Of a stretch of DNA of 64,000 nt, positions 654 through 46,334 are shown piece by piece. How positions within the stretch are numbered: position 1 is the first letter of the stretch; every line of letters starts with the position of its first letter. The notes under the pieces were generated by a model, which was given only the letters and a program-made list of their open reading frames with translations, searched no databases and had not been told where the DNA came from. Location: positions 15,822 through 79,821 of the forward strand of contig JAFGIV010000013.1 in the NCBI GenBank assembly GCA_016929435.1, read 5' to 3'. The DNA comes from Candidatus Uhrbacteria bacterium (GTDB lineage: Bacteria; Patescibacteriota; Patescibacteriia; SG8-24). The translations under genes were made by a program, and so were the position numbers.

Positions 654-1931
654 ATGATCATCGAAAAGATCCGCCAAATCTGGAAGATCCGCGACTTGAG
701 GAACAGCATCCTTTTCCTGCTGGCCATGCTGGTGCTGTTTCGGGTGGCGTCGCACGTCCCGGTTCCGGGCGTTGATTTGGCGGCCCTCAAGGACTTCTTC
801 GATTCCAATGACGTCTTGGGCCTGATCAGCGTCTTTTCCGGCGGTTCGATGGCGACCTTTTCCATCGTTGCCCTGGGGGTCGGTCCGTACATTACCGCCT
901 CGATCATCTTCCAGCTGTTGGCAATGGTCGTCCCGCGGCTGGAGGAGATCCAGAAGGACGGACCTTCCGGACAGGCCCGGATATCCCAATGGACAAGGAT
1001 GCTGACCGTCCCCCTGGCGGCCCTCCAGGCCTACAGCATGATCCACCTGCTTCGTTCGTCCGGACGCCAGATCATCGGTGACCTGTCGGTCCTGGACTAC
1101 GTCACCACCATCATGGTGATGACCGCCGGCACCGTTTTCATCATGTGGATCGGCGAGCTCATTACCGAACGGAAAATAGGCAACGGCATCTCCATCCTGA
1201 TTTTCGCCAACATCGTCGACCGGATTCCCCAGGCTATCCAGCAGGCAATCGTCAGCTTCGAGCCGTCCCAGATAATTATTTGGGCCGCCTTTCTGGCCAT
1301 TGCCGTCATTACGGTCGCCAGCGTGGTTTTCGTGTCCGAGGGACAGAGGAACCTTCCGGTGGTCTATGCCCGGCGTTTGAGGGGAGGGCAGTCGTTTGGC
1401 GGCGTAGAGACCCACCTGCCGCTTCGCGTCAACATGGCCGGGGTCATCCCGATCATTTTCGCCATATCGATCGTCCTGTTGCCGCCCATGGTAGCCCAGT
1501 TTTTTGTGGGCGCCAAAAGCGCGTGGGTAGCCTCAACGGCCGAATGGATCATTGCCGTTTCCCAGAACCAGTGGCTTTACGGCCTGACCTATTTCGTGCT
1601 GGTTTTTGCCTTTACCTACTTCTACACGGCGGTCGTGTTTCACCCCGATCGGGTGGCGGAGAACCTCCAGAAGCAGGGGGGGTTCATTCCCGGAATCCGG
1701 CCCGGACAGCCGACAGTCGAACACATCCAGAGGACCGTCAACCGGATCATGCCCTTCGGAGCCGCCTTTTTGGCCACCGTGGCCGTCCTGCCGCTGGCCC
1801 TGCAGGGTTTCACTGACACGCAGTTCCTGGTCATCGGCGGTACCGGGCTGCTGATCGTCGTCTCGGTCGTCATTGAGATGGTCAACCAGATCAAGGCCCA
1901 GCTGGTGATGAGGGAATACGATTCGGTTTAG
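654..1931 (+). CDS. secY: Preprotein translocase subunit SecY
   Basis: 425 aa, multi-TM protein. Conserved position after rplO and before adk/map. Confidence 0.93.
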   Translation: MIIEKIRQIWKIRDLRNSILFLLAMLVLFRVASHVPVPGVDLAALKDFFDSNDVLGLISVFSGGSMATFSIVALGVGPYITASIIFQLLAMVVPRLEEIQKDGPSGQARISQWTRMLTVPLAALQAYSMIHLLRSSGRQIIGDLSVLDYVTTIMVMTAGTVFIMWIGELITERKIGNGISILIFANIVDRIPQAIQQAIVSFEPSQIIIWAAFLAIAVITVASVVFVSEGQRNLPVVYARRLRGGQSFGGVETHLPLRVNMAGVIPIIFAISIVLLPPMVAQFFVGAKSAWVASTAEWIIAVSQNQWLYGLTYFVLVFAFTYFYTAVVFHPDRVAENLQKQGGFIPGIRPGQPTVEHIQRTVNRIMPFGAAFLATVAVLPLALQGFTDTQFLVIGGTGLLIVVSVVIEMVNQIKAQLVMREYDSV

Positions 1932-2032
1932 GCGGGCAATCCCGGCATGTTGGGCAAGACCGTCCCGAGAGGGGCGGTTTTTGGTTGGCCGGCGCCTCCT
2001 TCCGGGAAGCGGGCCTGTGATATAATTACAGT

Positions 2033-2869
2033 ATGCCGAACGGGAAAAAAATTTCGGTTTTTGCGCTTTTGTTCCAGGGAACGGCCTTCGTGCTGACCGT
2101 CGGCCTGGCTTTAGCCGCAAAATTCTGGCATCCGATGTCGGCAAGCGGATACGGGAAACCCGGCCAGGTTTCCGTTTGGGGTTTCCTGGCCGCATTTACG
2201 GTCATGACCGCCTTCGTTTTGGCGATATTGCGCCACCGTTTGGGAGTAAGGGTCTTTTCCGTGATGTTCACGGCAGCCGTGTTTTTTGGGGTGGCCCTTA
2301 TCGGTTTGGCGATGGCCGGGGAGGCGGGGGCGGTGATCGGGTTTTCCGTAGCCGTTTTCCTTCACTATTCCGTCGCTCGGGTCTGGTCGTTCGACCTGGT
2401 CCTTTCGGTCGGGTTGGCCGGGGTGGCCCTTAGCCTTGGAGACTCGCTGGCTCCGACCGGGGCGGCCGTGATTCTGGCGGCCATATCCATCTATGACATA
2501 TTTGCGGTTTACGGAAGCCGCCACATGGTGGGGATGGCGGGACGTCTCCTGGACGGGGGGGCTGGTTTTGCCATGATGGTTCCGGTCAGCCCCAAAGGCC
2601 TTTTGGTCCGGACTGACCGGTCCCGTGCGGGGAACGGCTTGTTTTATTTGGGTACGGGGGATATCGTCCTGCCGGCCATGATGGCCGTTTCCGCTTCCCG
2701 AACCGGCCTGTTTTCCGGTTTGGTCGTCATGTTCGGTGCCTTGGTTGGTCAAATTTTCAATTTAGTGGTATTTTTTAGGCAGGACAGGTTACGGCCCGTT
2801 CCAGCCCTGCCACTTACGGCCACCGGATCGATTTTGGCCTATCTGGCGGTTTCCGTGTTCGTTAACTAG
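2033..2869 (+). CDS. Presenilin/signal-peptide-peptidase family (A22-like) intramembrane aspartyl protease homolog
   Basis: 278 aa polytopic membrane protein. YD motif in a TM helix (AISIYDIFAVYG), GxGD motif (LGTGDIVLPAMM) and a downstream PAL motif (RPVPALPL), in the order characteristic of presenilin/SPP/PSH. Confidence 0.55.
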   Translation: MPNGKKISVFALLFQGTAFVLTVGLALAAKFWHPMSASGYGKPGQVSVWGFLAAFTVMTAFVLAILRHRLGVRVFSVMFTAAVFFGVALIGLAMAGEAGAVIGFSVAVFLHYSVARVWSFDLVLSVGLAGVALSLGDSLAPTGAAVILAAISIYDIFAVYGSRHMVGMAGRLLDGGAGFAMMVPVSPKGLLVRTDRSRAGNGLFYLGTGDIVLPAMMAVSASRTGLFSGLVVMFGALVGQIFNLVVFFRQDRLRPVPALPLTATGSILAYLAVSVFVN

Positions 2870-2878
2870 GGAACAGAC

Positions 2879-3535
2879 ATGCTGAACGTCATCATGATCG
2901 GCCCACAGGGGTCGGGAAAGGGAACCCAGTCGGAACTGCTGTCCGAGAGGTTAGGATTGCCCATGGTTTCCGTCGGGCAGCTTTTGAGGGCCGAAACGGA
3001 CCGCCAGACCGGGCTGGGACGGGAAATAGACCGTTACCTGAAGTCCGGGGAACTGGTCCCGTCCGACATCATCCGCCATGTCATCAAGGACCGTCTCGGT
3101 GACCAGGATACGGATCAGGGGGTGGTTCTGGACGGGTATCCCCGGACCGTTGAGCAGGCCGAAACCCTGGATGAGATCATGACCGGACTGAACCGGCACG
3201 TTACGCACGCCATTTACCTGGACATTTCCGACGAGACGGCCGTGAATCGAATATCCGGGCGGAGAGTCTGCTCTAACCATCGCTGCGGACTGAACTACCA
3301 CGCCACCCTCAATCCCCCCAAGCGGGAAGGGGTATGCGATTCGTGCGGCCATGCCCTGACGGTACGGGAGGACGACAATCCGGAGGCCATCCGGCAACGC
3401 CTTTCCCTTTTCCACGAGAAGAGCCAGCCGCTGGCGGATTACTACGAGAGGCGGGGAATACTCCACCGCTTTGACGGAAATAAGGAGATTGCGGATGTCA
3501 GTCGGGATATCCTGGGGATTTTGAGGGACAGGTGA
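2879..3535 (+). CDS. adk: Adenylate kinase (long form with Cys4 zinc lid)
   Basis: P-loop GPQGSGKGTQ; lid CxxC...CxxC (CSNHRCGLNYH...CDSCGHAL). Confidence 0.93.
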   Translation: MLNVIMIGPQGSGKGTQSELLSERLGLPMVSVGQLLRAETDRQTGLGREIDRYLKSGELVPSDIIRHVIKDRLGDQDTDQGVVLDGYPRTVEQAETLDEIMTGLNRHVTHAIYLDISDETAVNRISGRRVCSNHRCGLNYHATLNPPKREGVCDSCGHALTVREDDNPEAIRQRLSLFHEKSQPLADYYERRGILHRFDGNKEIADVSRDILGILRDR

Positions 3536-3614
3536 AAACAGTGCCGGACGCAACGGCAAGACCGCCCTTAAATGGCGGTTTTTTCGTTTGTCCTGTAGAA
3601 TACGGGTTAAGCGT

Positions 3615-4400
3615 ATGTTAGAAGCCAAGACCGAAAAGGAGCTGGAAGCCATCCGTGAGGGGGGCAGGATCCTATCGCAAATAATCGGCGAATTAGCCAA
3701 AGCCGTCCGTCCTGGAATCGGGACAGGCGAGCTGGAACGGATGGCCCTGGACATGATGTCCGAGGCCGGCGGTCAGCCGTCGTTTAAGGGGTATGGGGGC
3801 AGCCGGAAGGTCAAGCCGTTCCCGACCGCCATCTGCGCTTCCCTGAACCATGAGGTGGTTCACGGGTTTTCCTTGCCGTCCAAGACGGTGCGGGACGGGG
3901 ACCTTCTGAAGATCGATGCGGGCTTGAGGTACCGCGGATGTTATACGGACATGGCCGTGACCGTCGGGGCCGGAAAGGTCGGGGCAAGGGAAATAGAGTT
4001 GGCCCGGGTAACGCGGGAGGCCCTGATATTGGGGGTCGAACAGGTCCGCCACGGGGCTTGGGTCAGCGACATCGGAAAGGCGATTGACCGGCATGTCCGG
4101 CGACACGGTTTCAGTACGGTGAAGGATCTGGTTGGACACGGGGTCGGACGGGCCGTGCACGAGGACCCGCAGATACCGAACTACCTGGACCGCCGGTCTG
4201 CCCCAATCCGCCTTTTTCGCAACTTGGTTCTGGCCATTGAGCCGATGGTGAACATGGGCGGAGAGGAGGTCAACTGCGAGAACGACGGGTGGACCGTGAC
4301 GACCGCTGACCGGTCCCTGTCCGCACATTTCGAGATGACCGTAATAGTCGGCCAGGACGGGCCGGAAATAGTGACCCCCTTACCAGATTTTTTCGCTTGA
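3615..4400 (+). CDS. map: Methionine aminopeptidase type I
   Basis: Type-I MAP family fold and metal-ligand pattern; conserved location after adk. Start chosen at the internal Met (MLEAKTEK); the six-frame ORF begins at 3588. Confidence 0.88.
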   Translation: MLEAKTEKELEAIREGGRILSQIIGELAKAVRPGIGTGELERMALDMMSEAGGQPSFKGYGGSRKVKPFPTAICASLNHEVVHGFSLPSKTVRDGDLLKIDAGLRYRGCYTDMAVTVGAGKVGAREIELARVTREALILGVEQVRHGAWVSDIGKAIDRHVRRHGFSTVKDLVGHGVGRAVHEDPQIPNYLDRRSAPIRLFRNLVLAIEPMVNMGGEEVNCENDGWTVTTADRSLSAHFEMTVIVGQDGPEIVTPLPDFFA

Positions 4401-5578: not shown

Positions 5579-6931
5579 TTGCCAGTCTTTGAGGAAAATG
5601 GCACGATTAACCGGCTATCGAAAAACCTTATGGACAGCAACAGAATCGACATCAGGGATGCTCCGAAACACGTCGGTGAAGAGGTGGAAATCCGCGGCTG
5701 GAACTACAATAGCCGGTCTTCCGGGAAGATCGCCTTTCTGCAGCTGCGGGACGGGACAGGGCGGATTCAGGCCGTGGTGGTGTCCGGTGCGGTTTCCGGC
5801 GAATCCTGGCAGGCGGCCAAGTCGCTCAATACCGAGTCCTCGGTGATCGTTCGGGGGGTGGTGAAAGGGGAGCACCGGGCCCCGTCCGGGGTGGAGCTTC
5901 AGACGACGGCCGTGGAAGTCGTGGCTTTGGCGGAGGAATACCCCATCGGCAAAAAAGAGCACGGCGTCGATTTCCTGATGGACTACCGCCATCTCTGGAT
6001 TCGGTCCGCCCGGCAGGAGGCGATTCTCCGCATCCGGGACGAGATCAGCTTCGGCCTACGCGAGTTCATGAAGCAGCGCGGTTTTGTCCTAACCGATTCC
6101 CCGATCTTCACGCCGAGCGCATGTGAGGGCACGACCGACCTGTTTGAGGTCAAGTATTTCGACGACAAGGCCTATCTTTCCCAGTCCGGCCAGCTTTACC
6201 TGGAGGCGACTTCGGCGGCCCTCGGGAAGACCTACTGCTTCGGGCCGGCTTTCCGGTCGGAGAAGTCCAAGACCCGCCGTCACCTGACCGAATTCTGGAT
6301 GCTGGAGGCAGAGGTGGCCTTCATGGACTGGGAGGAGAACATGCAGGTGCAGGAGGACATGACCGTCCACGTGCTGAAAAGGGTCTTGGACAACTGCCAG
6401 GACGAGCTGAAGGCACTGGAACGGGACACGGCGCCCCTGAAGACGGCGGCCGAGGGCAATTTCCCCCGCATGCACCATGCCGAGGCGGTCAGGAAACTGC
6501 GGGAGTTGGGTTCTGACATCGGGGACAGGGACGATTTGGGGGCCGACGACGAAACCGTCCTGACCAGGCAGTTCGACCGGCCGGTTTTCATCCACCACTA
6601 TCCGGTGGAGGCCAAGGCCTTCTACATGAAACCGGACCCGAACGAGCCGGACCGGGCGCTGTGCGCCGACATGCTGGCCCCGGAAGGCTATGGGGAGGTG
6701 ATCGGCGGCTCCCAGCGCATCGATGACCTTAAGCTCCTGGAGGAACGGATCAGGGAAAAGGGGTTGCCGGTAGAGGCCTTCGAGTGGTTTCTGGACATCC
6801 GCCGCTACGGTTCCGTTCCCCATTCCGGGTTCGGCATCGGACTGGAGCGGACCGTGGCCTGGATCTGCGGCATTGAGCACGTCCGGGAGACCATCCCGTT
6901 CCCGCGGACCATTTACCGGATTAAGCCTTAG
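5579..6931 (+). CDS. asnS: Asparaginyl-tRNA synthetase (class IIb)
   Basis: Motif 2 region FRSEKSKTRRHLTEFWMLEAEVAF (the EFWM.E.E signature is diagnostic of AsnRS versus AspRS); C-terminal GFGIGLERTV. About 450 aa. Possible alternative start at 5630. Confidence 0.8.
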   Translation: MPVFEENGTINRLSKNLMDSNRIDIRDAPKHVGEEVEIRGWNYNSRSSGKIAFLQLRDGTGRIQAVVVSGAVSGESWQAAKSLNTESSVIVRGVVKGEHRAPSGVELQTTAVEVVALAEEYPIGKKEHGVDFLMDYRHLWIRSARQEAILRIRDEISFGLREFMKQRGFVLTDSPIFTPSACEGTTDLFEVKYFDDKAYLSQSGQLYLEATSAALGKTYCFGPAFRSEKSKTRRHLTEFWMLEAEVAFMDWEENMQVQEDMTVHVLKRVLDNCQDELKALERDTAPLKTAAEGNFPRMHHAEAVRKLRELGSDIGDRDDLGADDETVLTRQFDRPVFIHHYPVEAKAFYMKPDPNEPDRALCADMLAPEGYGEVIGGSQRIDDLKLLEERIREKGLPVEAFEWFLDIRRYGSVPHSGFGIGLERTVAWICGIEHVRETIPFPRTIYRIKP

Positions 6932-6943
6932 GCCACCAAAAAT

Positions 6944-8338
6944 ATGTCACGAACACTCGTCATAGACACCGTCGGCAAGGTCGGGCAGGAGGTCACCCTG
7001 TCCGGTTGGGTTCATGTCCGGAGGGACATGGGCAAGCTGGTCTTCATTGACCTGCGCGACCGGACCGGCACTATCCAGGCGGTTTTCCTGCCAAACCGGA
7101 AAGAGCTGCTGGAACAGGCCAATGTCCTGCGTCCGGAGTTCTGCGTCAGCCTGACCGGCACGGTCAATGCCCGCCCGGACAAGCAGGTCAATCCGGACAT
7201 GGCCACCGGAACGGTGGAGTTGGAGGTGACCGGTCTCACGATCCTGAACGAGGCCAAGACCCCGCCGTTCGAGATCGACAGGGACACCAGGGGAATAAGC
7301 GAGGAATTGCGCCTCAAATACCGCTATCTGGACCTGCGGACCGATCGGATGAGGAAAAACCTGAAGTTAAGGGCCGACGTCACCTCCTCCTTCAGGAAGT
7401 TCCTGGTCGGGGAGGGTTTCACCGAGGTCGAAACCCCCATCCTGACCAAGGGAACCCCCGAGGGTTCGCGGGAGTACCTGGTGCCGTCACGCCTGCATCC
7501 CGGAAAGTTCTATGTCCTTCCCCAGTCGCCGCAGCAGTTCAAGCAGCTCCTGATGGTCGCCGGGGCGGAAAGGTATTTCCAGGTCGCCCGGTGCTTCCGG
7601 GACGAGGATCAGCGCGGTGACCGCCAGCCGGAGTTCACCCAGCTGGACATGGAGATGTCTTTCGTCTATGGGGAGGAGGACGTGATGGGTATCGTGGAAG
7701 GGATGTTCAAGACGATGCTGAAGGAGGTCGCCCCGGAGAAGAGACTGACCTTCACCGAGTTCCCGCGGATCGGCTATGCCGAGGCGATGGAGAAGTACGG
7801 CAGCGATAAGCCAGACCTGAGAAAAGACAAGAACGATCCCAACGAATTGGCCTTCTGTTGGGTGGTGGATTTCCCGCTGTTCGAGATGTCCGAAACCGAG
7901 GGCCGCCTGGTATCCGCCCACCACCCGTTTACGGCCCCGAAGGACGAGGACCTGCCCCTGCTGGATGCCGAACCGGCCAAGGTCCGGGCCAAGGCCTATG
8001 ACATCGTCCTGAACGGGTATGAGATCGGAGGCGGCAGCATCAGGATCCACAAACGGGAACTGCAGAACCGGATATTCCAGATATTGGGCATTCCCGACGG
8101 GGACATCGCCCTGCGGTTCGGGCACATCCTGGAGGCCTTTGAATACGGTGCGCCGCCGCACGGCGGCATTGCCCCGGGGCTGGACCGGGTCGTCATGCTT
8201 TTGGCCGGGGAGCCGAACATCCGGGAGGTCATACCGTTCCCCAAGACCGGTGATGCGAGGGGCCTCATGATGGGCGATCCGTCGGAGATCCCTTCCGCCC
8301 AACTGGCCGAGGCGAACATCGAGATCGCCAAGAAATAA
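6944..8338 (+). CDS. aspS: Aspartyl-tRNA synthetase, bacterial-type motifs but short (464 aa, apparently lacking the GAD insertion domain)
   Basis: [40 protein letters not shown] (bacterial AspRS signature); C-terminal [14 protein letters not shown]. Length is about 120 aa shorter than canonical bacterial AspRS. Confidence 0.85.
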
Positions 8339-15365: not shown

Positions 15366-15440
15366 CGCGGGGTGGAGAAGTGGCATCTCGCAGGGCCCAT
15401 AACCCTGAGGTCGCAGGTTCGAATCCTGCCCCCGCAACCA
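15366..15440 (+). tRNA. Initiator tRNA-fMet (anticodon CAT)
   Basis: Cloverleaf with anticodon loop cccataa. Three consecutive G-C pairs close the anticodon stem (caGGG/CCCtg). C1-A72 mismatch at the acceptor-stem end. Ends in CCA. These are bacterial initiator hallmarks. Confidence 0.8.
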
Positions 15441-15568: not shown

Positions 15569-15645
15569 GGCGAGGTAGCTCAGTTGGTTAGAGCGAGGGA
15601 CTCATAAGCCCTAGGTCGTCGGTTCAATTCCGACCCTCGCTACCA
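15569..15645 (+). tRNA. tRNA with CAT anticodon (elongator Met or lysidine-modified Ile2)
   Basis: Canonical D arm (tagctcagttggttagagc), anticodon loop ctcataa, T arm ggttcaattcc, CCA end. Followed by the hairpin aacccgag-ttta-tctcgggtt. Confidence 0.8.
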
Positions 15646-16888: not shown

Positions 16889-18211
16889 ATGTCCGACGAA
16901 CCGGATAAAAACCTGACGACCAGCCCCCTGTCCGGGTTCATGGAACTGCTCCCGGCCGAGCAGTTGGCCTTTAACCGTATATACGATACGATCCGCCGGT
17001 CGTATGAGGCGTTCGGGTTCATTCCGATCGATACGCCGGTTTTGGAGAGGGCGGAGGTCCTGTTGGCCAAGGCCGGTGGGGAGACCGAGAAGCAGATCTA
17101 CCGATTCCGGAAAGGGGATACCGATTTGGCGATGAGGTTCGACCTGACCGTGCCCTTGGCCCGTTACGTGGCCGAACACTGCGGTCAGCTGGTCCTCCCG
17201 TTCCGCCGTTACGCCATGGGAAAGGTCTATCGGGGAGAAAGGGCCCAAGCCGGACGGTTTCGGGAATTCTACCAGTGCGACATCGATGTCATCGGCGACG
17301 GCGAACTTGACCTCCGTTTCGATGCGGAGATTCCCAGCGTCATCCACATGATATTCCGGCAGTTGGGTTTCGAGAGGTTCACGATCCGAATAAACAACCG
17401 AAAGATTTTCGGCGGGCTGTTCCGGGGGTTGGGAATCGAGCGTCAGTCGGTCGGGATCATGCAGGCCGTTGACCGGCTGGAGAAGGTCGGTCCGGAAGCG
17501 GTCCGGAAGGAACTGGCGGAAATGGGACTGCCGGAACCGGCCATCGGCCGGCTGTTCGATTTCGTCGGTTTGGGGGGAACCTGCGACGAGATCATCGCCG
17601 GGTTGAGGAAAATGGGGATTGACGACGGGGGACTGGCCGAAGGGATCAGTGAGCTGGAGACAGTGGTCGGGGCAATCAGGCAATTCGGCGTTCCGGACGC
17701 CAATTTTGCGGTTGACCTGACGATCGCCCGCGGACTGGATTACTATACCGGTACCGTCTACGAGACCCGGTTGGACGATTATCCAGAAATCGGATCGGTC
17801 TGTTCGGGGGGGCGTTATGACGACCTGGCCAGCCACTACACCGACCGGAAACTGCCGGGAGTCGGCATTTCCATCGGCCTGACACGGCTGTTCGACCAGC
17901 TTTACCGGCGGGGGGTGCTGAAGACCGGGGGGTCCACGACCACCAAGGCGCTGATCCTGCCCATGACGGAGGATATGGGACACTGTTTCCGGTTGGCGAC
18001 CAGGTTGAGGGAAGCCGGCATTGCCACCGAGGTATCGTTCGTTTCCGGAAAGATGAAGAAACGCCTGGGTTACGCCGATCGGCTCGGCATCCCGTTCGTG
18101 GTTTTCGTGGGGGACGATGAAATCAGGAAGGGAACCTATACCCTTAAGGATTTCCGGGAAGGCGACCAGGAGGAGCTGACCGAGGCGGAGCTGATACGGA
18201 AGTTGGTTTGA
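16889..18211 (+). CDS. hisS: Histidyl-tRNA synthetase (copy 1, canonical length)
   Basis: Motif 2 YRGERAQAGRFREFYQCD, HisRS-specific GGRYDDL, C-terminal anticodon-binding domain. Confidence 0.9.
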   Translation: MSDEPDKNLTTSPLSGFMELLPAEQLAFNRIYDTIRRSYEAFGFIPIDTPVLERAEVLLAKAGGETEKQIYRFRKGDTDLAMRFDLTVPLARYVAEHCGQLVLPFRRYAMGKVYRGERAQAGRFREFYQCDIDVIGDGELDLRFDAEIPSVIHMIFRQLGFERFTIRINNRKIFGGLFRGLGIERQSVGIMQAVDRLEKVGPEAVRKELAEMGLPEPAIGRLFDFVGLGGTCDEIIAGLRKMGIDDGGLAEGISELETVVGAIRQFGVPDANFAVDLTIARGLDYYTGTVYETRLDDYPEIGSVCSGGRYDDLASHYTDRKLPGVGISIGLTRLFDQLYRRGVLKTGGSTTTKALILPMTEDMGHCFRLATRLREAGIATEVSFVSGKMKKRLGYADRLGIPFVVFVGDDEIRKGTYTLKDFREGDQEELTEAELIRKLV

Positions 18212-32511: not shown

Positions 32512-32540
32512 GACTGTCCCTTGCCTTAAAAGTTTAAACT
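32512..32540. repeat. REP-like palindrome copy (imperfect)
   Basis: ttaagccggggactgtcccttgccttaaa; overlaps the stop region of the RAYT gene. Confidence 0.55.
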
Positions 32541-33145
32541 CCGTCGAATTTCATCAAATTTGATTCTTCGGAAAAGCTCGTCAGATGACCGATCTCCATC
32601 CTGTGCTCGGTCAATTCCCTATGGGCCCGATGCCGGCTCAACGGATCATCGCCGATTGATAGGTATTGGTCGTCGAAAGTGATGATTCTGTCGTGCGGAG
32701 AAGAGGTGTGCCCACGGTAGCTGGTCCATCGGTATTGTTCCGGCCGTTCGCACAGGCCACTCCTTACGGGATTCAACTCTATGTAAGAAGAACAGGTTGC
32801 GAAGTAGATTTCGTCAGAAATCAGCTTACTTTTGAACCTGTCCTGCCACAGGTGTCCGATCCCGCCGTACTTGTTCCTGTGCCAGATCGAGTATCCCTGT
32901 TCGATCATCTTCATGGCCAAGGAAAGACATCCGGCATTTAGAGAATCGACCAGGAGATGATAGTGATTCGGCATCCAGGCATAATAGAATATCCTGATGC
33001 CTGTTTTTCGTTTGGCCCTAAGGATCAGCTGGCGGAATTTTAGACAGTCTTCATCGTCGTGAAACACAGGTTTTTTGTTGTTGCCTCGGTTATAGACATG
33101 AAATATCCCCACATCACCGATGACACCCCTTGGTTTTCTGGGCAT
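32534..33145 (-). CDS. IS200/IS605-like HuH tyrosine transposase, REP-associated (RAYT-like)
   Basis: HuH motif MPNHYHLLV; C-terminal catalytic Tyr region QYRWTSY; about 200 aa. Flanked on both sides by REP-like palindromes. Confidence 0.7.
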   Translation of the reverse strand: MPRKPRGVIGDVGIFHVYNRGNNKKPVFHDDEDCLKFRQLILRAKRKTGIRIFYYAWMPNHYHLLVDSLNAGCLSLAMKMIEQGYSIWHRNKYGGIGHLWQDRFKSKLISDEIYFATCSSYIELNPVRSGLCERPEQYRWTSYRGHTSSPHDRIITFDDQYLSIGDDPLSRHRAHRELTEHRMEIGHLTSFSEESNLMKFDGV

Positions 33146-36967: not shown

Positions 36968-38179
36968 ATGAAAGTCACGACCGACCCAATAAAGACAGAG
37001 GCCCTCCTGACCCGGCGGGTGGAGGAGGTGGTGGTAAGGGAATCCCTGGCCGCCAAGCTCGCTTCCGGCAGGCAGCTGACCGTGAAGATGGGTTTTGACC
37101 CGACTGCCCCGGACATCCATTTGGGGCACAGCATCGGTTTGAGGAAACTGCAGGAGTTCATGGACCTGGGCCACAGGGCGGTGATGATCATCGGGGACTA
37201 TACCACCCTGATCGGGGATCCGTCCGGCAAGTCCAAGACCCGCCCGATGCTGACGCCGGAGGAGATCGAGGCCAACGCCAAGACCTACCTGGAACAGGCC
37301 GGAAAGGTCCTGGATGTCGAAAGGCTGGAGATTCGGCGCAACAGCGAGTGGTTTTCCAGGATGGATTTCCTGGACATCCTGAAGCTGGCCGGAAAGTTCA
37401 CCGTCGCCCGGATGATCGAACGGGAGGATTTCCGCAGTCGGATGGCGTCCGGGACGGACATCGGCCTGCACGAGCTGCTTTACCCGATGATGCAGGCCTA
37501 CGATTCCGTGATGGTCCAGGCCGACGCGGAATTGGGGGGCACGGATCAGCGCTTCAACATCCTGGTCGGCCGGGACCTTCAGAGGAAAATGGGGATGCCG
37601 CAGCAGGATGCGGTGTTCCTGGGGCCGATCCTGGCGGGTACGGACGGTGTCCAGAAGATGTCGAAGTCTCTCGGCAACTACATCGGCGTGTCCGAAGCGC
37701 CGGAGGAGATGTACGGGAAGACGATGTCGATTCCGGACAGCGTCATGTGGGACTGGTTCCTGGCGGTGACCGACGTGCCGGAACAGGAGGTCAGGGAGAT
37801 TCGGGAGGCCTGTGACCGGGGGGAAATGAACCCGCGGGAGGCCAAGGCCCGCCTGGCCCGAGAAATCGTCCTGACCTACCACGGGGAAGCGATAGCCGCC
37901 CGGGCGGAAGAGCATTTCAACCGGACTGTCCGGAATCGGGAGTTGCCGGAGGAGATCGGGGAGTTCGTTGTTCCGGCCGGTAAACACGGCCTGATCGATC
38001 TGCTGTTCGGGTCCGGTTTGGCGCCGTCCAAGACCGAGGCCCGGAGGCTGATCCAGCAGGGCGGGATCAGGATCGACGGAAAGGCCGTCGGGGACATCGA
38101 TACGGTCGTCGAGATCGGCGGTAACCCCGTCATTATCCAGAAGGGCAAGCGGGGATACCGGCGGATAACGGCCGGTTAG
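36968..38179 (+). CDS. tyrS: Tyrosyl-tRNA synthetase with C-terminal S4 domain
   Basis: HIGH-type motif (PDIHLGH), KMSKS, class I Rossmann fold, C-terminal S4-like RNA-binding domain; 403 aa. Confidence 0.85.
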   Translation: MKVTTDPIKTEALLTRRVEEVVVRESLAAKLASGRQLTVKMGFDPTAPDIHLGHSIGLRKLQEFMDLGHRAVMIIGDYTTLIGDPSGKSKTRPMLTPEEIEANAKTYLEQAGKVLDVERLEIRRNSEWFSRMDFLDILKLAGKFTVARMIEREDFRSRMASGTDIGLHELLYPMMQAYDSVMVQADAELGGTDQRFNILVGRDLQRKMGMPQQDAVFLGPILAGTDGVQKMSKSLGNYIGVSEAPEEMYGKTMSIPDSVMWDWFLAVTDVPEQEVREIREACDRGEMNPREAKARLAREIVLTYHGEAIAARAEEHFNRTVRNRELPEEIGEFVVPAGKHGLIDLLFGSGLAPSKTEARRLIQQGGIRIDGKAVGDIDTVVEIGGNPVIIQKGKRGYRRITAG

Positions 38180-38391: not shown

Positions 38392-38895
38392 ATGAGTTAC
38401 TACATAATCATTCGAGGCCCGTTAGGAAGCGGTAAATCAACGATATCCGAGAAACTCGCTCAAATTCTTGACGCAAAATACATTGGAATGGACGAGGTGC
38501 TCGAAAAGCATGGCCTTGATAAAATGCCGCCTGACGCACCTTGCATACCAGCGGAAAATTTTATAAAAGCAAATGAAATCGTACTGCCAGAAGTAAAAAA
38601 ATTACTTACAGGCGGCAAGATCGTTATTTTTGATGCCTGCTTTTATCATAAGGAAGTGATCGAGCACCTCGTCCAAAACCTTGAAATGCCGCACTACATT
38701 TTTACGCTTAAAGCACCATTGGAACTCTGCATAAAAAGAGATAGTGAACGAAGCAAAACTCTTGGTGAAGGTGCGGCAGGGGCTGTCCATTCGCTCGTTT
38801 CCCGGTTCGACTACGGCAATATTGTTGATGTTACAGGGGGCCTCGAAGACGCAATAAAAGATATTCTTTCTTTCCTACCGATGCCCAAAAATTAA
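38392..38895 (+). CDS. Chloramphenicol-phosphotransferase-like (CPT family) P-loop kinase
   Basis: Walker A GPLGSGKST at the N-terminus; VIFDACF (Walker B-like); overall block order resembles CPT/AAA_33 small kinases. Lies in a low-GC island. Confidence 0.45.
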   Translation: MSYYIIIRGPLGSGKSTISEKLAQILDAKYIGMDEVLEKHGLDKMPPDAPCIPAENFIKANEIVLPEVKKLLTGGKIVIFDACFYHKEVIEHLVQNLEMPHYIFTLKAPLELCIKRDSERSKTLGEGAAGAVHSLVSRFDYGNIVDVTGGLEDAIKDILSFLPMPKN

Positions 38896-39075
38896 ATTAC
38901 TTAACAGCGTGTATGCGGTTCCGTTCGTCGTCGCACCTTATCTTCACTGCACCCATATTTGTTGGTGATTGCGCTTCGCACTATTATTTCACCCGCAAAC
39001 ATCGCTTATATCTGGCCGTCGGGCGCAATTTCGCTCCGCCCCCCAAAACGATTATAATTTTAAGGGAATGAAATT

Positions 39076-40059
39076 TTGATTTTTATGAATCCAGAAATGT
39101 CCCACGGCATTGAACGACCCGAATCACGGCAGGAGGGTTCGGTCGTTCTTGACGCCCTGTCTTTCGAGTTTTGCGGGGATGATTTGGTGCGTGACTTTTA
39201 CGGTAAAAAATTGCGAGAGATGGAAGATTACACAAAATGGCTGGAGGACAGCAGGGAAAATTTAGAACAGAACAGGGAGAAAATAGCCAAGGCCGTGGAA
39301 GACGGCCTGCTCAATGACCCCGAACCAGAAACAATTTGGAAATTTCAGGCCGATAAGGCGAGGGAGAGTCAGGAGAAGGTGTTGGCGATAAAAAAGGAGA
39401 TAGAAAGTAGAATCAAAGAAATTAGGGACGAAACGGGGAGAAGATTGGGCAAATTTCTCCCCGATTGGTTTCCCGGTGAGGCAAGAATCACCTTCACCAT
39501 GAACGAAAAAGCCGATTTTTGCGTTGAAGGCGAAACCGTAACCGTAGATTTGGGACGACTGTCGTTTGAGCAAAACCCGGTCGAAAAAGTGAAGGAAGGT
39601 CTGGCACACGAAGTTTTTCATCTTTGGATGAAGGAGAAAAACAAGCGGCCTGACCCTGAGCGGAGCGATGAAACTGACGATGACCTAAAAAACCAAATCA
39701 TATCCCGAACCGTCGATGAGGGTCTGGCGGTTTTGGTGAGCGGACAATCCTTGGCGGAGCATCACCAAAAACAGGGACGAGACTATCAAGAGTACATTGC
39801 GGAGTCATTTGAATTCTTCAGGGAATTTTTAGCGCAGGATGACGGAGCGGAGCTGGAAAAAATCAACGAGAAGGAATTCAGGAACATGGGACATTTTTAT
39901 GTGGTCGGCAATGAAATCGCGGCGGCTGTCCTGCGGCAGGACGGCATGGAAAAATTTAGGGGACAAATCGTTGAGGCAAGAGACAACCCGCCCGTGTTTT
40001 TGGGGAGATACAGGAAGATTTGCGGAAAAAACGCAGGTTTGCATAAAATCGATCCATAA
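39076..40059 (+). CDS. Hypothetical protein with HExxH zinc-metallopeptidase-like motif
   Basis: 327 aa, Glu/Lys-rich; GLAHEVFHLWM contains HExxH. Low-GC island. Start could be the internal Met at about 39088. Confidence 0.35.
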   Translation: MIFMNPEMSHGIERPESRQEGSVVLDALSFEFCGDDLVRDFYGKKLREMEDYTKWLEDSRENLEQNREKIAKAVEDGLLNDPEPETIWKFQADKARESQEKVLAIKKEIESRIKEIRDETGRRLGKFLPDWFPGEARITFTMNEKADFCVEGETVTVDLGRLSFEQNPVEKVKEGLAHEVFHLWMKEKNKRPDPERSDETDDDLKNQIISRTVDEGLAVLVSGQSLAEHHQKQGRDYQEYIAESFEFFREFLAQDDGAELEKINEKEFRNMGHFYVVGNEIAAAVLRQDGMEKFRGQIVEARDNPPVFLGRYRKICGKNAGLHKIDP

Positions 40060-40293
40060 AAATAATTTTGCCCGAATGGTGTCCGCTATCGTTCGTTAAT
40101 CTGTCGGCGTTAGCCAATGCGGCATATCCGGTTACGGCTTTCGTCCGAAAGCCTCCATCCATATTTTATTTCGCCCCGCCCGACCGTCGCCCGCGCGGCA
40201 TGCCGGCCCGGTGGCCCCGCCGTCGCCCCGCCGCGATCGCACAAACGCCGCCCCTTATCGGAAATGATTTAGCCGCCTAATCTTACTGACAAT

Positions 40294-40905
40294 ATGGAAA
40301 AAGAAGATTTTACGTCGATTGGAATCTGCTTTTCGTGCGGGGTGCGCAAACGAAACGGTAAGGATGTTCTGGCTTGGGATACGCGAGCCAGGACCGATAG
40401 GGCATTCATCCTATACAAACTTGGATATATCAGCAAAATCCTCTGTACCGGGGGCATATTCCAAAAGGGGCAGCAGGTTCCGATCGCCGAATTAATGAAA
40501 GGTTACCTGACAGGAAAGGGCGTGCCCAAAAACGACATTCTAATCGAGACCAGATCCGTGGAAACCGTAGAGAACATAAAATTTTCCCTCTTATTACTGA
40601 AAAAAAGAAATATTCTCAAAAATCTCAAAAATGCCGAGCAGTTGCGCTTGGTTTTGATTAGCGAACCGAATCATTTGCGCCGTATAGAGATTATCGCCCG
40701 TGCTTATTTGGAAAGACACAAAATAGGCAAATTCGTGCCCTTGCTACTCGATCCGGTCCATTACCATATTTCTGAAAAAACCAGGCACGAAGAGGACGCA
40801 ATGCTGTACCATACGGCCCTTGATCCGCTTGGTGAGGGTGAGATTTTTGAAAAAATTAGACAGGAAAGACGTCAGGCCCTTGGCAAAAGACACGGTTCAC
40901 GTTAA
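40294..40905 (+). CDS. DUF218 (YdcF/SanA/ElyC-like) domain protein
   Basis: ILIETRSVETVENIKFSLLLL matches the DUF218 signature (E..S.nT.EN). Low-GC island. Confidence 0.5.
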   Translation: MEKEDFTSIGICFSCGVRKRNGKDVLAWDTRARTDRAFILYKLGYISKILCTGGIFQKGQQVPIAELMKGYLTGKGVPKNDILIETRSVETVENIKFSLLLLKKRNILKNLKNAEQLRLVLISEPNHLRRIEIIARAYLERHKIGKFVPLLLDPVHYHISEKTRHEEDAMLYHTALDPLGEGEIFEKIRQERRQALGKRHGSR

Positions 40906-40974
40906 CGTGTCGGTGTCTTTGAAAAATGACGTCCGCCGAACGGTGGCGTCCAAAATCCCCCACAGGAGGAAAAA

Positions 40975-41376
40975 ATGACGGTACAATTCAGGAAAACATT
41001 AGATACCCTGCTCTCGTTCAACGAAGGAAGGCCTATAAGGGTTGGAGTTCGGGGATCAAGAGAGTATCTAAACGCAATATTGGGCTATTTTCGAGATAGA
41101 TCATTTATCGTCTCTGAACAGGGATCGGTTCGTGATCTCGGGAATGCCTTTCCCATTCCCGAAAACATACCAGATACAGCCCCCGGATATGTAGTCGTGG
41201 TTGATTCAAGGGGTGCTTGGGACAATCACACGATGAATAAGGGAATCCTAACGGCCAATCTGGGAATCTCTGATGGTCAAAACGCCGTTTTTATCTCATG
41301 GACCTCTGATCTCAACGAAACTTCAGGAGGTGGGGCGGAATGGGACACCTCTTTTCTTGAGGGTATTAACCAGTAG
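40975..41376 (+). CDS. Hypothetical protein (133 aa)
   Basis: Intact ORF at the island edge; no motif recognised. Confidence 0.3.
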   Translation: MTVQFRKTLDTLLSFNEGRPIRVGVRGSREYLNAILGYFRDRSFIVSEQGSVRDLGNAFPIPENIPDTAPGYVVVVDSRGAWDNHTMNKGILTANLGISDGQNAVFISWTSDLNETSGGGAEWDTSFLEGINQ

Positions 41377-41512
41377 CTCCTGCCGCCATCCCCAAAAAAA
41401 TCGCCTTGACCGGGGCGATTTTCTGTTCCCCCCGCCGCCAGGTTCCGGAGGTTCGGATATCCGGCATAATCTGGTATAATACCATTGCAGGATAACTCAA
41501 ATACCATTCGGG

Positions 41513-42583
41513 ATGTCCAATTTCAGTTCAGCGGAATTGACCATAATCGGCGCTTTCGGGGCGGTCTTTCTGGCTTTCCTGACGATTCACCCCTACCGTC
41601 GCCGGCTTTTCGGTTGGCGGATCGCGGCGGTGGAGGCGTTCGCCTTCGCCCTGGTCATGATCAACTTCACGGAAATGGTGATGTCCAGGGACAGCGGGCA
41701 GTTTACGGTCCGGACGGTCCTGTTTACGGTTTCGGCCATCGCCGGAACCCTCCTGGTCCGGAGCGTGGTCGCGGAGATGGAAACCCACCGGAAAGTGAAG
41801 GCCCTGGCGGTTCGGCTGAACAGGATGAACCGCGAGCTGCGCCGGATGGACGAGATGAGGAGCGAATTCGTTTCCGTCGCCTCCCACCAGCTGCGGACCC
41901 CGGTTTCGGTCATCAGGGGATACCTTTCCCTCATCAAGGACGGGGCGTTCGGGAAGCTGGAGGGGGACCTGCAGGACAAGATGGAGCAGATATACGACAT
42001 AAACGAACGGCTGGTCCTTTTGATCAACAACCTGCTCAACGTCTCCCGGATAGAGAAGGACGCCGCCCAGTTCTGGTGTTCGGAGGTGAACCTTCCGGAG
42101 ATCATCCGCCGGACGGTGGACAGCATGGGGTTTCGGATCCGCGGAAAGGGGCTGACGCTTGATTTCGTTGATCCGGAAGCCGGAGTGCCCAATGTCTTCG
42201 CCGACCCGGAACGTCTGACCGAGGTGATCGTCAACCTGATCGATAACGCCGTAAAGTACACCTATTCCGGTTCCGTGACGGTGAGCGTTTCGGAGGGGGA
42301 GGACGGGTCGTCGGTCATCGTCCGGGTGAAGGACACCGGCATCGGCATGGACCCGCAGGACATGCACCACGTGTTCCAGAAATACTACCGTCCCCACCGC
42401 CCGACCGACGAGCACCAATCCGGACTGAATCTGGGTTTGGGGCTGTATGTCTGCGCCCGCTTCCTGGAAAGCATGGGCGGGAAGATTTGGGTGGAGTCGA
42501 CGGAACCGGGGAAGGGGACCACCGTCGCTTTTTCCCTGCCGGTCCGTCCGGGCGGGGTCTGCGTCCCCACGGAGGGAAAGTGA
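41513..42583 (+). CDS. Sensor histidine kinase (orphan, no adjacent response regulator)
   Basis: N-terminal TM segments; H-box FVSVASHQLRTPVSVIRGY; HATPase_c N/G boxes (NLIDNAVKYT, DTGIGM, GLGLYVC). Confidence 0.85.
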   Translation: MSNFSSAELTIIGAFGAVFLAFLTIHPYRRRLFGWRIAAVEAFAFALVMINFTEMVMSRDSGQFTVRTVLFTVSAIAGTLLVRSVVAEMETHRKVKALAVRLNRMNRELRRMDEMRSEFVSVASHQLRTPVSVIRGYLSLIKDGAFGKLEGDLQDKMEQIYDINERLVLLINNLLNVSRIEKDAAQFWCSEVNLPEIIRRTVDSMGFRIRGKGLTLDFVDPEAGVPNVFADPERLTEVIVNLIDNAVKYTYSGSVTVSVSEGEDGSSVIVRVKDTGIGMDPQDMHHVFQKYYRPHRPTDEHQSGLNLGLGLYVCARFLESMGGKIWVESTEPGKGTTVAFSLPVRPGGVCVPTEGK

Positions 42584-44215: not shown

Positions 44216-44842
44216 ATGGACACGGATCCCCAAAAATACGCCGACATTCCCGGCGGGGAAGGGGGCGGGACCGAAAGGAAAGGGACTTTCGGGGCGGTTT
44301 TGGAGTTCGTCGGCGAGTTGGTCCACGTCATACTGATATCCCTGGCCATCATCGTCCCGATCCGGTATTTCCTGATCCAGCCGTTCTACGTCAAGGGGGC
44401 ATCGATGGAGCCGAGCTTCTATGACCACGAATACCTGATCATCGACGAGATCAGCTACCGGTTCGGCGACCCGAACCGGGGCGACATCGTCGTTTTTCGG
44501 TACCCGAACGACCCCAGGCAGTTTTTCATCAAGCGGGTAATTGGCCTGCCGGGGGAACGGGTGGTGATAGGCGGCGGTCAGGTGACCATCTACGGCAACG
44601 GCGATGCGGAAGGGAAGGTGCTGGACGAAGGCGCCTATCTGGGGACCGCCATAACCGTGGGGAACAGGGACGTCACCCTGGCCGAGGACGAATTTTTCCT
44701 GATGGGGGACAACCGTTCCGCCAGCCTTGATTCCCGGGTGTTCGGGGCCGTCTCCAGGGACTTCATCGTCGGTCGGGTATGGTTCAGGGGTTGGCCGCCG
44801 GAAAAGATCCGTTTCTTCGGTTCCGAAAACGCCCTGGAATAA
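44216..44842 (+). CDS. lepB: Signal peptidase I
   Basis: Catalytic Ser region (VKGASMEPSF), Lys box (FFIKRVIGLPGERV) and GDNRSASLDSR boxes. Confidence 0.88.
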   Translation: MDTDPQKYADIPGGEGGGTERKGTFGAVLEFVGELVHVILISLAIIVPIRYFLIQPFYVKGASMEPSFYDHEYLIIDEISYRFGDPNRGDIVVFRYPNDPRQFFIKRVIGLPGERVVIGGGQVTIYGNGDAEGKVLDEGAYLGTAITVGNRDVTLAEDEFFLMGDNRSASLDSRVFGAVSRDFIVGRVWFRGWPPEKIRFFGSENALE

Positions 44843-44873: not shown

Positions 44874-46334
44874 ATGGCAACCAAACCCAAGAAACCGATC
44901 GCCAAAGCCAAGGCGGCGACTCGAAAGGAAAAACCCCGGAAGGAACCGGTTCAAAGGCCGGTCCAGAAAAAGAAGCCGGCCGTGAAGGATCCGCCGGCCA
45001 GGAAGGTTGCGCCCAAGGAGGAGCCGGCGGAAGAAAACGCGGCAGCGGCGACCAAGGCCGTTCGGATTCCGCAGCTGCTCCGGGGCATGCGCGACATCCT
45101 TCCGTCCGAACAGCGGTATTGGCGCCATGTCGTCCGGAAGATGGAGGAGATAGCCCTGGCCTACGGGTACGAGAGGATCGACACCCCTGTCCTGGAGGAG
45201 ACTTCCCTGTTCGTCCGTTCCGTCGGCAAGCAGAGCGATGTCGTTGAGAAGGAGCTGTTCACCTTCACGGACCGGAGCGGGGACAGCGTTTCCCTCCGTC
45301 CGGAGGGTACCGCCTCCGTGGCCCGGGCCTACATAAACCATGGCATGGTCAACCTGCCGCAGCCGGTGAAGATGTTTTACGTCGGATCGATGTTCCGTTA
45401 CGAGCGTCCCCAAGCCGGCCGTTTCCGCGAGCATCACCAGTTCGGCCTGGAGGTCTTGGGTGAGGGCAGCCCGGTAATCGATGCCGAGCTGATCATGCTG
45501 TCCCACCTGCTCTACCGCGACATAGGCATCAAGACCGTGGCGCACGTGAACAGCATCGGCTGCTCCAACTGCCGCCAGGCATACCTGGAGCGCTTGACTG
45601 ACTTCTATCGGCCGAGACGCTCCCGTCTCTGCGAGGACTGCCGGCGTAGGCTGCTGAAGAATCCCCTGCGCCTGTTGGACTGCAAGGAGCCTTCATGCGT
45701 GGCCGCCCGCGAGGAGGTGCCGCATATCGTCGACTACCTCTGTGAGGAATGCAAGAACCACCTGACCAGGGTCCTGGAATACCTGGATGAGATGGGCGTT
45801 CCGTATGTCCTCAACCCGCACCTGGTCCGCGGCCTGGACTACTATACCCGGACGGTATTCGAGCTCATGCAGTCCGACGAGCAGTCCGCCGGACAGCACT
45901 CCCTGGCCGGGGGCGGCCGTTACGACAACCTCCTGGAACAGCTCGGCGGGAGTCCGACTCCGGCCTGCGGCTTCTCCATTGGCGTGGAACGGGCCATCCT
46001 GCAGATGAAGGCCCTGGACCTGCAGCCGGTTTCCGACCTGCAGCCCGACGTCTTCCTGGCCCAGTTGGGCGATACGGCCCGCCGGAAGGCCTTGATCCTG
46101 TTCGAGAGCCTTCGGAATTCCGGGATCCGGACCTCCGCCACCTTTTCCAAGAGCGCCCTGAAGGGCCAGTTGGAGGCCGCCAACCGGTTGGGGGCCAGGT
46201 ATACGGTCATTATCGGGCAGAAGGAAGTGATCGACGGGACGGTGCTTGTCCGGGACATGGAGTCCGGAATGCAGGAAGTGGTCGATTTCACCAAGGCCGT
46301 AGCGGAGATGAGGAAGAAACTGAGCCGCATGTAG
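44874..46334 (+). CDS. Histidyl-tRNA synthetase paralog (copy 2) with Lys-rich N-terminal extension and Cys-rich insertion
   Basis: Motif 2 FRYERPQAGRFREHHQFG, HisRS GGGRYDNL, anticodon-binding C-terminus. About 60-aa KPKK/AKAK-rich leader. Insertion with 8 Cys (CSNCRQ...CEDCRRRL...CKEPSC...CEECKNHL). The six-frame ORF begins at 44727, inside lepB; ATG at 44874 preferred. Confidence 0.8.
   Translation: MATKPKKPIAKAKAATRKEKPRKEPVQRPVQKKKPAVKDPPARKVAPKEEPAEENAAAATKAVRIPQLLRGMRDILPSEQRYWRHVVRKMEEIALAYGYERIDTPVLEETSLFVRSVGKQSDVVEKELFTFTDRSGDSVSLRPEGTASVARAYINHGMVNLPQPVKMFYVGSMFRYERPQAGRFREHHQFGLEVLGEGSPVIDAELIMLSHLLYRDIGIKTVAHVNSIGCSNCRQAYLERLTDFYRPRRSRLCEDCRRRLLKNPLRLLDCKEPSCVAAREEVPHIVDYLCEECKNHLTRVLEYLDEMGVPYVLNPHLVRGLDYYTRTVFELMQSDEQSAGQHSLAGGGRYDNLLEQLGGSPTPACGFSIGVERAILQMKALDLQPVSDLQPDVFLAQLGDTARRKALILFESLRNSGIRTSATFSKSALKGQLEAANRLGARYTVIIGQKEVIDGTVLVRDMESGMQEVVDFTKAVAEMRKKLSRM

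Follow-up and report, generated by a model that had tools for sequence, protein, structure and literature searches.

A presenilin/SPP-family intramembrane aspartyl protease gene between secY and adk in a Candidatus Uhrbacteria genome

Near the start of the window, by which we mean the whole 64-kb stretch of DNA that was analysed, lies a series of + strand genes: rplO, encoding ribosomal protein L15 (190..630; PF00828, E=3.4e-13), secY (654..1931; PF00344, E=2e-104), which shares 58-77% identity with its counterparts in syntenic loci, a gene for a presenilin/SPP-family GxGD intramembrane aspartyl protease of the PSH type (PF06550; 2033..2869), adk (2879..3535; PF00406, E=1e-42, and PF05191), located 9 nt 3' of the protease gene and probably co-transcribed with it, and map, encoding methionine aminopeptidase (3588..4400; PF00557, E=1e-37). 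Further downstream follow ruvX, recO, and an Asx-type tRNA synthetase gene, as identified by synteny with annotated relatives. The protease gene begins with ATG and specifies a product of 278 aa with nine transmembrane (TM) helices. The ATG at 2033 is the one start codon that can serve it: the frame is closed by a TGA ending at 2020, four codons 5' of the ATG, so that no earlier start is available, and the start at V20 adopted by one automatic gene call (P0001, 259 aa) is ruled out, as it would cut off TM1, which is both conserved and confidently modelled. From the N- to the C-terminus, the ORF carries the motif strings AISIYDIFAVYG / IYDIFAVYG (Y154-D155), LGTGDIVLPAMM (G207-T-G-D210), and PVPALPL (P257-A-L-P260); the description given in the earlier note, of a 278-aa protein with YD, GxGD, and PAL in canonical order, is correct in its coordinates, its start, and its strings. 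The ORF is intact, and its GC3 of 0.68 is typical of coding sequence within the window, a comparison drawn against crude and noisy gene calls based on length and GC3. The product is identical to NCBI MBN1585243.1, which is labelled 'hypothetical protein' (Candidatus Uhrbacteria bacterium), and the window thus derives from a MAG of an uncultured member of the Patescibacteria (CPR). Relatives of the protein bear automatic names such as 'presenilin family intramembrane aspartyl protease' (NCBI) and 'presenilin-like A22 family membrane protease' (JGI).

The family assignment is carried in the first place by a Pfam profile search, in which PF06550 ('Signal-peptide peptidase, presenilin aspartyl protease') matches with E=9.9e-20 and a whole-protein score of 71.6 bits against a gathering threshold of 23.9 bits, the match spanning protein residues 35-276 and profile positions 23-280 of 283. 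PF04258 (Peptidase_A22B) scores just above its threshold (27.8 versus 23.3 bits), and no further Pfam family is found on the protein even at E<=1, neither PF01080 (presenilin proper) nor PF01478 (Peptidase_A24) giving a match at that level; the transporter family that had been named beforehand as the result which would overturn the assignment did not appear. A sequence search of the PDB returned the archaeal presenilin homologue PSH (4HYC, E=5e-10) as the sole meaningful match, with both aspartates in register (SIYDIFAVY with AVYDAISVY, and GTGDIVLPA with GMGDLIMPS). The first catalytic aspartate lies in TM6 and belongs to the Y154-D155 pair (codons 2492..2497, + strand), which aligns to the YD of 4HYC, and the second lies at the N-terminal end of TM7 within G207-T-G-D210 (codons 2651..2662, + strand), which aligns to the GMGD of PSH; the PAL motif, P257-A-L-P260 (codons 2801..2812, + strand), falls right before TM9. 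In an alignment of 18 homologues reaching down to 22% identity and including archaeal ones, Y154, D155, G207, G209, D210, P214, and P257-A-L-P260 are invariant, and the strict pattern YD...GxGD...PAL occurs in this order in 135 of 158 near-full-length homologues.

The predicted structure agrees with this assignment. The AlphaFold2 model of the protease (pLDDT 91.0, pTM 0.89) has helices at residues 9-32, 48-67, 71-114 (two membrane spans), 117-138, 141-162, 209-224, 226-249, and 259-277, making nine membrane helices in all. In this model YD is placed inside TM6 (helix 141-162), GTGD at the N-terminal end of TM7 (209-224), and PALP at the entry to TM9 (helix 259-277), and TM6 and TM7 are joined by a loop of 46 residues with two short strands; the two catalytic motifs thus fall within neighbouring predicted helices or at their ends, as the topology check suggested in the earlier note anticipated. 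When the model was compared with the PDB by Foldseek, all 18 matches at E<=1e-3 were to PSH, human SPPL2a, or human presenilin-1 (TM-scores 0.60-0.74), with no A24 structure among them. The features that define A22 membership (MEROPS clan AD), namely YD and GxGD on the adjacent TM6 and TM7, PAL before TM9, and the nine-TM presenilin fold, are all present, and the profile matches, the alignment to 4HYC, and the fold matches concur in bearing out the original identification of the ORF as an A22-family GxGD intramembrane aspartyl protease.

The closest characterised protein is PSH, also known as MCMJR1 (MmIAP), of the archaeon Methanoculleus marisnigri (PDB 4HYC, 4HYG, 4Y6K), which likewise belongs to PF06550, is about 22-23% identical to the protease over the whole fold, and provides its best structural match (TM-score 0.73-0.74, target-normalised). 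The two proteins share nine TMs, YD in TM6, GxGD in TM7, a short TM6-7 loop, and the same charge-predicted orientation, and both are without partner-subunit genes nearby. Unlike PSH, the protease is bacterial, reads PALP in the aligned columns where PSH and most archaeal loci (Thermoplasmata set) read AGLP, and is encoded in a secY/adk cluster rather than beside the eIF-2beta-like neighbour seen in Thermoplasmata. It also scores 67.7 bits against NF041679, the NCBIfam equivalog model for archaeal PSH, which has a cut-off of 125; since this cut-off is not reached, the function of PSH is not simply transferable, and on the profile scores the protease would be classed as a relative of PSH and not as a protein of equivalent function. 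With the eukaryotic SPP/SPPL proteases (MEROPS A22B; PF04258), the protein has in common the GxGD chemistry, the nine-TM fold, and PAL; SPPL2a (PDB 9K92) is matched by Foldseek at E=1e-5, with 15-16% identity in the structural alignment. The eukaryotic SPP and SPP-like proteases are active without cofactors. Presenilin-1/2, the catalytic subunit of gamma-secretase (MEROPS A22A; PF01080), has the same fold (TM-score up to 0.72, query-normalised), YD, GxGD, and PAL in the same order and at the same places, and the arrangement that is also predicted for the protease, with the N-terminus inside, the TM6-7 loop cytoplasmic, and the C-terminus outside. It is set apart by its obligatory cofactors, by the PF01080 profile, which the protease does not match, and by a long TM6-7 loop that undergoes endoproteolysis (PMC2947513), as against the 46 residues of the protease, in whose gene neighbourhood no equivalents of nicastrin, APH-1, or PEN-2 were found.

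The position of the gene directly after secY had led the earlier note to propose co-expression with the translocon, and the signals around the gene speak to this proposal. The spacer between secY and the protease gene measures 101 nt and contains, 3' of secY, a terminator-like hairpin (1960..1982, + strand; CCGTCCC-GAGA-GGGGCGG followed by TTTTT) that forms in the minimum-free-energy fold of the spacer and has a stability of -13.5 kcal/mol before the T-run; it is a predicted terminator that the consensus terminator scanner did not list. An equivalent hairpin with a T-run is present in 10 of 15 related spacers. It is followed by a perfect extended -10 promoter-like box, TGaTATAAT (2018..2026, + strand), only 6 nt before the ATG, an arrangement of the leaderless type. 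The sequence TGNTATAAT has two sites in the 64-kb window against 0.24 expected (two sites are reached in 3 of 100 shuffles), one of them being this box, and both are intergenic and just upstream of + strand genes. The same succession of a hairpin with T-run, an extended -10 box, and an ATG within 6-18 nt is seen in three related loci (L001, L017, and L030), and with a weaker -10 in a fourth (L026). Across the syntenic loci, the distance from secY to the protease gene ranges from 39 to 1,610 nt (median about 290), and some of these spacers hold further ORFs, whereas the distance from the protease gene to adk, 9 nt in the window, has a median of 9 and is <=18 nt in 12 of 17 loci, these short gaps being free of hairpins. 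Between adk and map lies a second terminator-like hairpin with a T-rich tail (3558..3582, + strand; 9-bp stem with 5 G-C pairs), the first site listed in the terminator scan. From the hairpin at 1960-1982, the -10 box, the tight gap to adk, the long and variable gap to secY, and the hairpin at 3558-3582, the protease gene and adk appear to form a bicistronic unit transcribed from an extended -10 promoter of its own into an mRNA with no leader or almost none, an arrangement that suggests constitutive housekeeping expression of the protease together with adk and not a translocon-coupled module. Intrinsic terminators are often leaky, and some read-through from secY into the protease gene is possible. 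The signals nevertheless speak against the proposed co-expression with the translocon, as the hairpin with its T-run and the extended -10 box separate the gene from secY, and its tight coupling is to adk.

The distribution of the family places this gene order in a wider frame. Homologues at 54% and 45% identity occupy the context rplO-secY-SPP-adk-...-map-ruvX-recO (SPP here denoting the protease gene), as in the window. When each GTDB species was represented by one genome and scanned with a pattern built from the 11 closest sequences, a procedure that under-counts distant members, 80 loci were found, spread over many lineages of Patescibacteria, with nine in Dehalococcoidia and about 23 in archaea. 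A tblastn search with the window proteins recovered the order secY-SPP-adk in 15 of the scanned genomes (L006-L011, L013, L017, L018, L020, L022, L023, L025, L026, and L030/L054) and in none of the others. The 18 syntenic sequences, among which identity of the protease falls to 32%, form one clade in a neighbour-joining tree calculated without support values. With a synteny limited to about 15 GTDB species plus L001-L003 and a monophyletic set of syntenic sequences, the most economical account is one insertion event 5' of adk in the common ancestor of this patescibacterial clade, followed by vertical inheritance. The earlier note was right that the protease gene stands between secY and adk, and the survey of relatives which it proposed shows the same gene order in related genomes, but the placement is the inherited state of one clade and does not extend to the family. 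Its description of the secY-adk junction as conserved across bacteria was likewise too broad: the adjacency holds in many lineages, for example in Bacillus-type spc clusters, and not in E. coli. Nor are bacterial homologues as uncommon as had been stated, since they are frequent among Patescibacteria and occur in Dehalococcoidia as well, and an exhaustive profile search retrieved 1,981 family representatives at 50% identity (E<=1e-3), 485 of them at E<=1e-30.

Outside the syntenic clade, the neighbourhoods are varied. A 33%-identical Uhrbacteria homologue (L004 and L005, the same protein) is non-syntenic and is followed by a solute-binding protein gene and then by seven PF18895 pilin genes, and one archaeal homologue adjoins eIF genes. 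Clustering of neighbouring ORFs over the scanned loci brought out a Mur ligase and a weakly cupredoxin-like protein in loci of the Yanofsky-/Doudnabacteria type and an eIF-2beta-like protein in Thermoplasmata, and it revealed no recurrent secretion-related neighbour in the other lineages. The placement after secY is best described as a clade-level historical feature, and coupling to the translocon is not supported. In the neighbour-joining tree, again without support values, the Woesearchaeota copies nest among the patescibacterial ones, which may reflect movement of the family between CPR bacteria and DPANN archaea.

The orientation of the protein in the membrane bears on the kind of substrate that it might accept. 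In the structural model, the loops on the N-terminal side (the N-terminus and the TM2-3, TM4-5, TM6-7, and TM8-9 loops) contain 12 K+R, as against 1 on the opposite side, and a bias in the same direction, mapped through an alignment of homologues, is found in 81 of 81. The mean K+R counts are ~13 versus ~1 both for the syntenic clade and for other Patescibacteria, 12.8 versus 0.8 in Dehalococcoidia, and 9.5 versus 1.3 in archaea. According to the positive-inside rule, positively charged loops are cytoplasmic; applied to this bias, the rule places the N-terminus and the TM6-7 loop in the cytoplasm and the C-terminus outside. The protease is thus predicted, on the loops of the model, to have the presenilin-like N-in/C-out orientation, inverse to that of eukaryotic SPP, and the inverted orientation that marks a functional SPP, in which the N-terminus and the TM6-7 loop are non-cytoplasmic, is not what the charge count predicts. 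A signal peptide released by LepB is itself N-in/C-out (type II). The topology of SPP is reported to be opposite to that of presenilin, and this difference has been linked to the preference of presenilin for type I and of SPP for type II substrates (PMC2947513). By analogy with these eukaryotic enzymes, from which the rule connecting orientation to substrate derives, the presenilin-like orientation argues against a role as signal peptide peptidase and would make TM stubs of N-out/C-in (type I) orientation likelier substrates than signal peptides, which are N-in/C-out.

In our main reading, to which we assign a probability of roughly 0.7, the gene encodes an active, stand-alone presenilin-type intramembrane protease that is expressed with adk and is not specifically coupled to SecY. 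By homology, D155 in TM6 and D210 at the start of TM7, surrounded by the nine TM helices of the model, would activate a water molecule and cut a peptide bond within the TM helix of the substrate, and PALP (257-260) would be positioned at the entry to TM9. Homology to PSH, presenilin, and SPP further suggests that the substrate is a membrane protein or peptide with one span, whose TM helix would enter laterally, and that the protease, in common with PSH and SPP, needs no cofactors. The charge bias, read by analogy, would give it a preference for single-span stubs of N-out/C-in orientation, and transcription of the SPP-adk unit from its own promoter between two terminator-like hairpins would keep its expression at a constitutive housekeeping level. 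For the archaeal MCMJR1, intramembrane proteolysis that depends on the aspartates and is sensitive to transition-state gamma-secretase inhibitors has been demonstrated (PMC2947513).

The alternative with the best claim to attention is a bacterial signal peptide peptidase tied to the Sec translocon, which would be co-expressed with SecY and clear the remnants left by LepB, perhaps replacing SppA or RseP in a reduced genome. Several observations lend it some plausibility: adjacency to secY has been kept across a clade whose proteases have diverged to 32% identity, eukaryotic members of the family clear signal peptides and the Pfam family is named accordingly, and PSH-type proteins have been named as candidate archaeal signal peptide peptidases (PMC8305020). 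The genome also makes cleaved signal peptides, as the window encodes a LepB (44216-44842; PF10502) and two large surface proteins, each combining a signal peptide with a two-helix PF18895 domain (47336-49564 and 49568-59320), and no SppA or RseP gene was seen in the 64-kb window, a weak indication given that the window is part of the genome. We nonetheless consider this alternative unlikely, as a hairpin with T-run and a promoter-like box stand between secY and the protease gene and recur in relatives, as the spacing to secY is long and variable and at times interrupted by ORFs whereas that to adk is tight, and as linkage to secY is missing from other patescibacterial clades, Dehalococcoidia, and archaea. 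The orientation counts against it as well, being predicted as presenilin-like and thus the inverse of that of eukaryotic SPP (PMC2947513), whereas a cleaved signal peptide is N-in/C-out. On the same grounds, the signal-peptide clearing proposed in the earlier note is disfavoured. SppA (S49) and RseP (M50) would share a physiological niche with the protease if signal-peptide clearing were its role; SppA is a serine and RseP a metalloprotease, and their folds and catalytic types are unrelated to those of the presenilin family.

A broader version of the same idea makes the protease the clade's main enzyme for clearing TM debris from its single membrane, whether signal-peptide remnants, type I stubs from surface proteins that have been shed, or both, in place of SppA/RseP-type systems in a reduced genome. 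With the LepB and the surface proteins with signal peptides encoded in the window, such debris could arise both from signal peptides and from surface proteins anchored in the membrane; the C-termini of both PF18895 surface proteins are without TM anchors. We hold this version to be speculative and rather improbable. If it were true, a prokaryotic presenilin homologue would for the first time have a physiological role assigned to it, and this in a bacterium.

A maturation protease for pilins, comparable to the A24 prepilin peptidases and acting on type IV pilins or on proteins with the PF18895 'T4SS_pilin' domain, is very unlikely. GxGD chemistry is common to A22 and A24 enzymes, two PF18895-domain surface proteins are encoded in the window, and the L004/L005 homologue precedes the solute-binding protein gene and the seven PF18895 pilin genes; that neighbourhood, however, is found in one lineage only and does not recur in the neighbour clustering, and PF18895 genes are so numerous in these genomes that the adjacency may be due to chance. 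The sequence, the fold, and the PAL motif point to A22, PF01478 gives no match even at E<=1, and an identity as an A24 prepilin peptidase is ruled out by the profile and fold evidence. Least probable of all, to the point of being negligible, is a non-proteolytic membrane function, such as the ion-leak channel or scaffold roles proposed for eukaryotic presenilins and their holoprotein, or a gene in decay, as both aspartate motifs and PAL are strictly retained in the aligned bacterial and archaeal homologues, the YD...GxGD...PAL order persists in most near-full-length sequences (135/158), the ORF is intact with a GC3 typical of coding sequence, and the model is of high confidence.

The protein is a real but ordinary member of the known presenilin/SPP family and does not represent a new kind of system. 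The published work on presenilin/SPP proteins that we found concerns eukaryotic and archaeal enzymes, and the literature searched contained no paper on bacterial members, those of CPR bacteria and Dehalococcoidia included. For the homologue in the archaeon Haloferax, one table gives the physiological role as unknown (PMC9263693), and elsewhere the protein is entered as no more than a predicted candidate for a signal peptide peptidase, without a gold-standard homologue (PMC8305020). Close relatives of the protease are already correctly named, and the practical gain therefore lies in re-annotating a 'hypothetical protein' and in correcting the idea of translocon coupling. Beyond this, the family is found to be widespread in Patescibacteria and present in Dehalococcoidia, with the catalytic motifs kept throughout, a uniform, predicted presenilin-like orientation and, in one clade, a tightly kept pairing with adk, and it offers a concrete set of bacterial enzymes together with a testable prediction, namely type I rather than signal-peptide substrates and housekeeping expression.

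Within the syntenic clade, the region around the protease gene is plastic. In 7 of 14 syntenic loci, secY and the protease gene are separated by an ORF for a soluble protein of about 75-96 aa (mostly 75-85), which is absent from the window; as a substrate of the protease it is ruled out, being soluble, without a hydrophobic segment, and without a Pfam match. One locus (L022) contains a 1.6-kb gap within the region, and in several of the syntenic loci one or two extra P-loop kinase-like genes are present between adk and map.

The spacer between secY and the gene of the presenilin/signal-peptide-peptidase family (the protease gene) is occupied by a conserved small soluble ORF in 7 of the 14 related genomic loci (numbered here with the prefix L) that share the secY-protease-adk order, namely L002 (4772-5008), L006 (4592-4831), L008 (4622-4864), L009 (1227-1517), L013 (162-419), L020 (4617-4844), and L023 (3395-3625). 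This ORF encodes 75-96 aa, mostly 75-85, with neither a Pfam match nor a hydrophobic segment, and its 3' end reaches or overlaps the start of the protease gene; it is missing from the window and from L001. The adk-map interval is likewise variable and in several relatives holds one or two additional P-loop kinase-like genes, with two being found in L001 (6602-7213 and 7346-7972) and one in L002 (6576-7208), all of which give weak, sub-threshold matches to AAA_33, AAA_18, or AAA_17. The window carries no extra kinase-like gene between adk and map, which are separated there by a gap of 52 nt.

In a neighbour-joining tree of the protease homologues, computed without support values, the copies from Woesearchaeota metagenome-assembled genomes (L033, L053, and L055) sit inside the patescibacterial sequences and apart from the other archaea, and this nesting of DPANN-archaeal copies suggests either inter-domain transfer or mis-binning. 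Public-record titles reading "uncultured Gammaproteobacteria" or "Candidatus Binatia" are attached to loci of clear patescibacterial synteny, including L006, L008, L018, L026, and L027 among others, and these taxon labels look unreliable.

Several features lie elsewhere in the window. The second of its only two perfect extended -10 boxes, TGGTATAAT, occupies 41472-41480, 32 nt 5' of a histidine kinase gene (41513-42583). An adjacent pair of genes for surface-type proteins of 742 aa (47336-49564) and 3,250 aa (49568-59320) follows further downstream, each product having a signal peptide and an N-terminal PF18895 "T4SS_pilin" two-helix domain, with TIG and Big_5 domains also present in the giant, and after them comes a gene for a TSP3-repeat protein (59877-60539). 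A seven-gene PF18895 array adjoins the protease homologue in the non-syntenic Uhrbacteria loci L004 and L005.

Two HisRS-family genes (PF13393 plus HGTP_anticodon) are found within this one 64-kb stretch, at 16889-18211 and ~44900-46334, the second coming after lepB, which its listed ORF start at 44727 overlaps; that start is probably too far upstream. Side by side at 5579-6931 and 6944-8338 lie two class II tRNA-synthetase-like genes, presumably one for AsnRS and one for AspRS. Matches to PF00152 and PF01336 identify the second, and the first is assigned by position alone, by comparison with the post-recO PF00152/PF01336 gene of L002. Two tRNA-Met (CAT) genes ~130 nt apart (15366-15440 and 15569-15645) are possibly an initiator/elongator pair or include a tRNA-Ile2 precursor. 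An IS200-like Y1 transposase gene (PF01797) lies on the minus strand at 32534-33145. Following a 403-aa ORF (36968-38179), a low-GC3 island at 38392-41376 (GC3 of 0.41-0.54 versus ~0.75-0.85 in neighbouring genes) was possibly acquired horizontally; it comprises a 133-aa ORF and genes for a kinase-like protein (AAA_33), a putative zinc peptidase (DUF5700), and a DUF218 protein.
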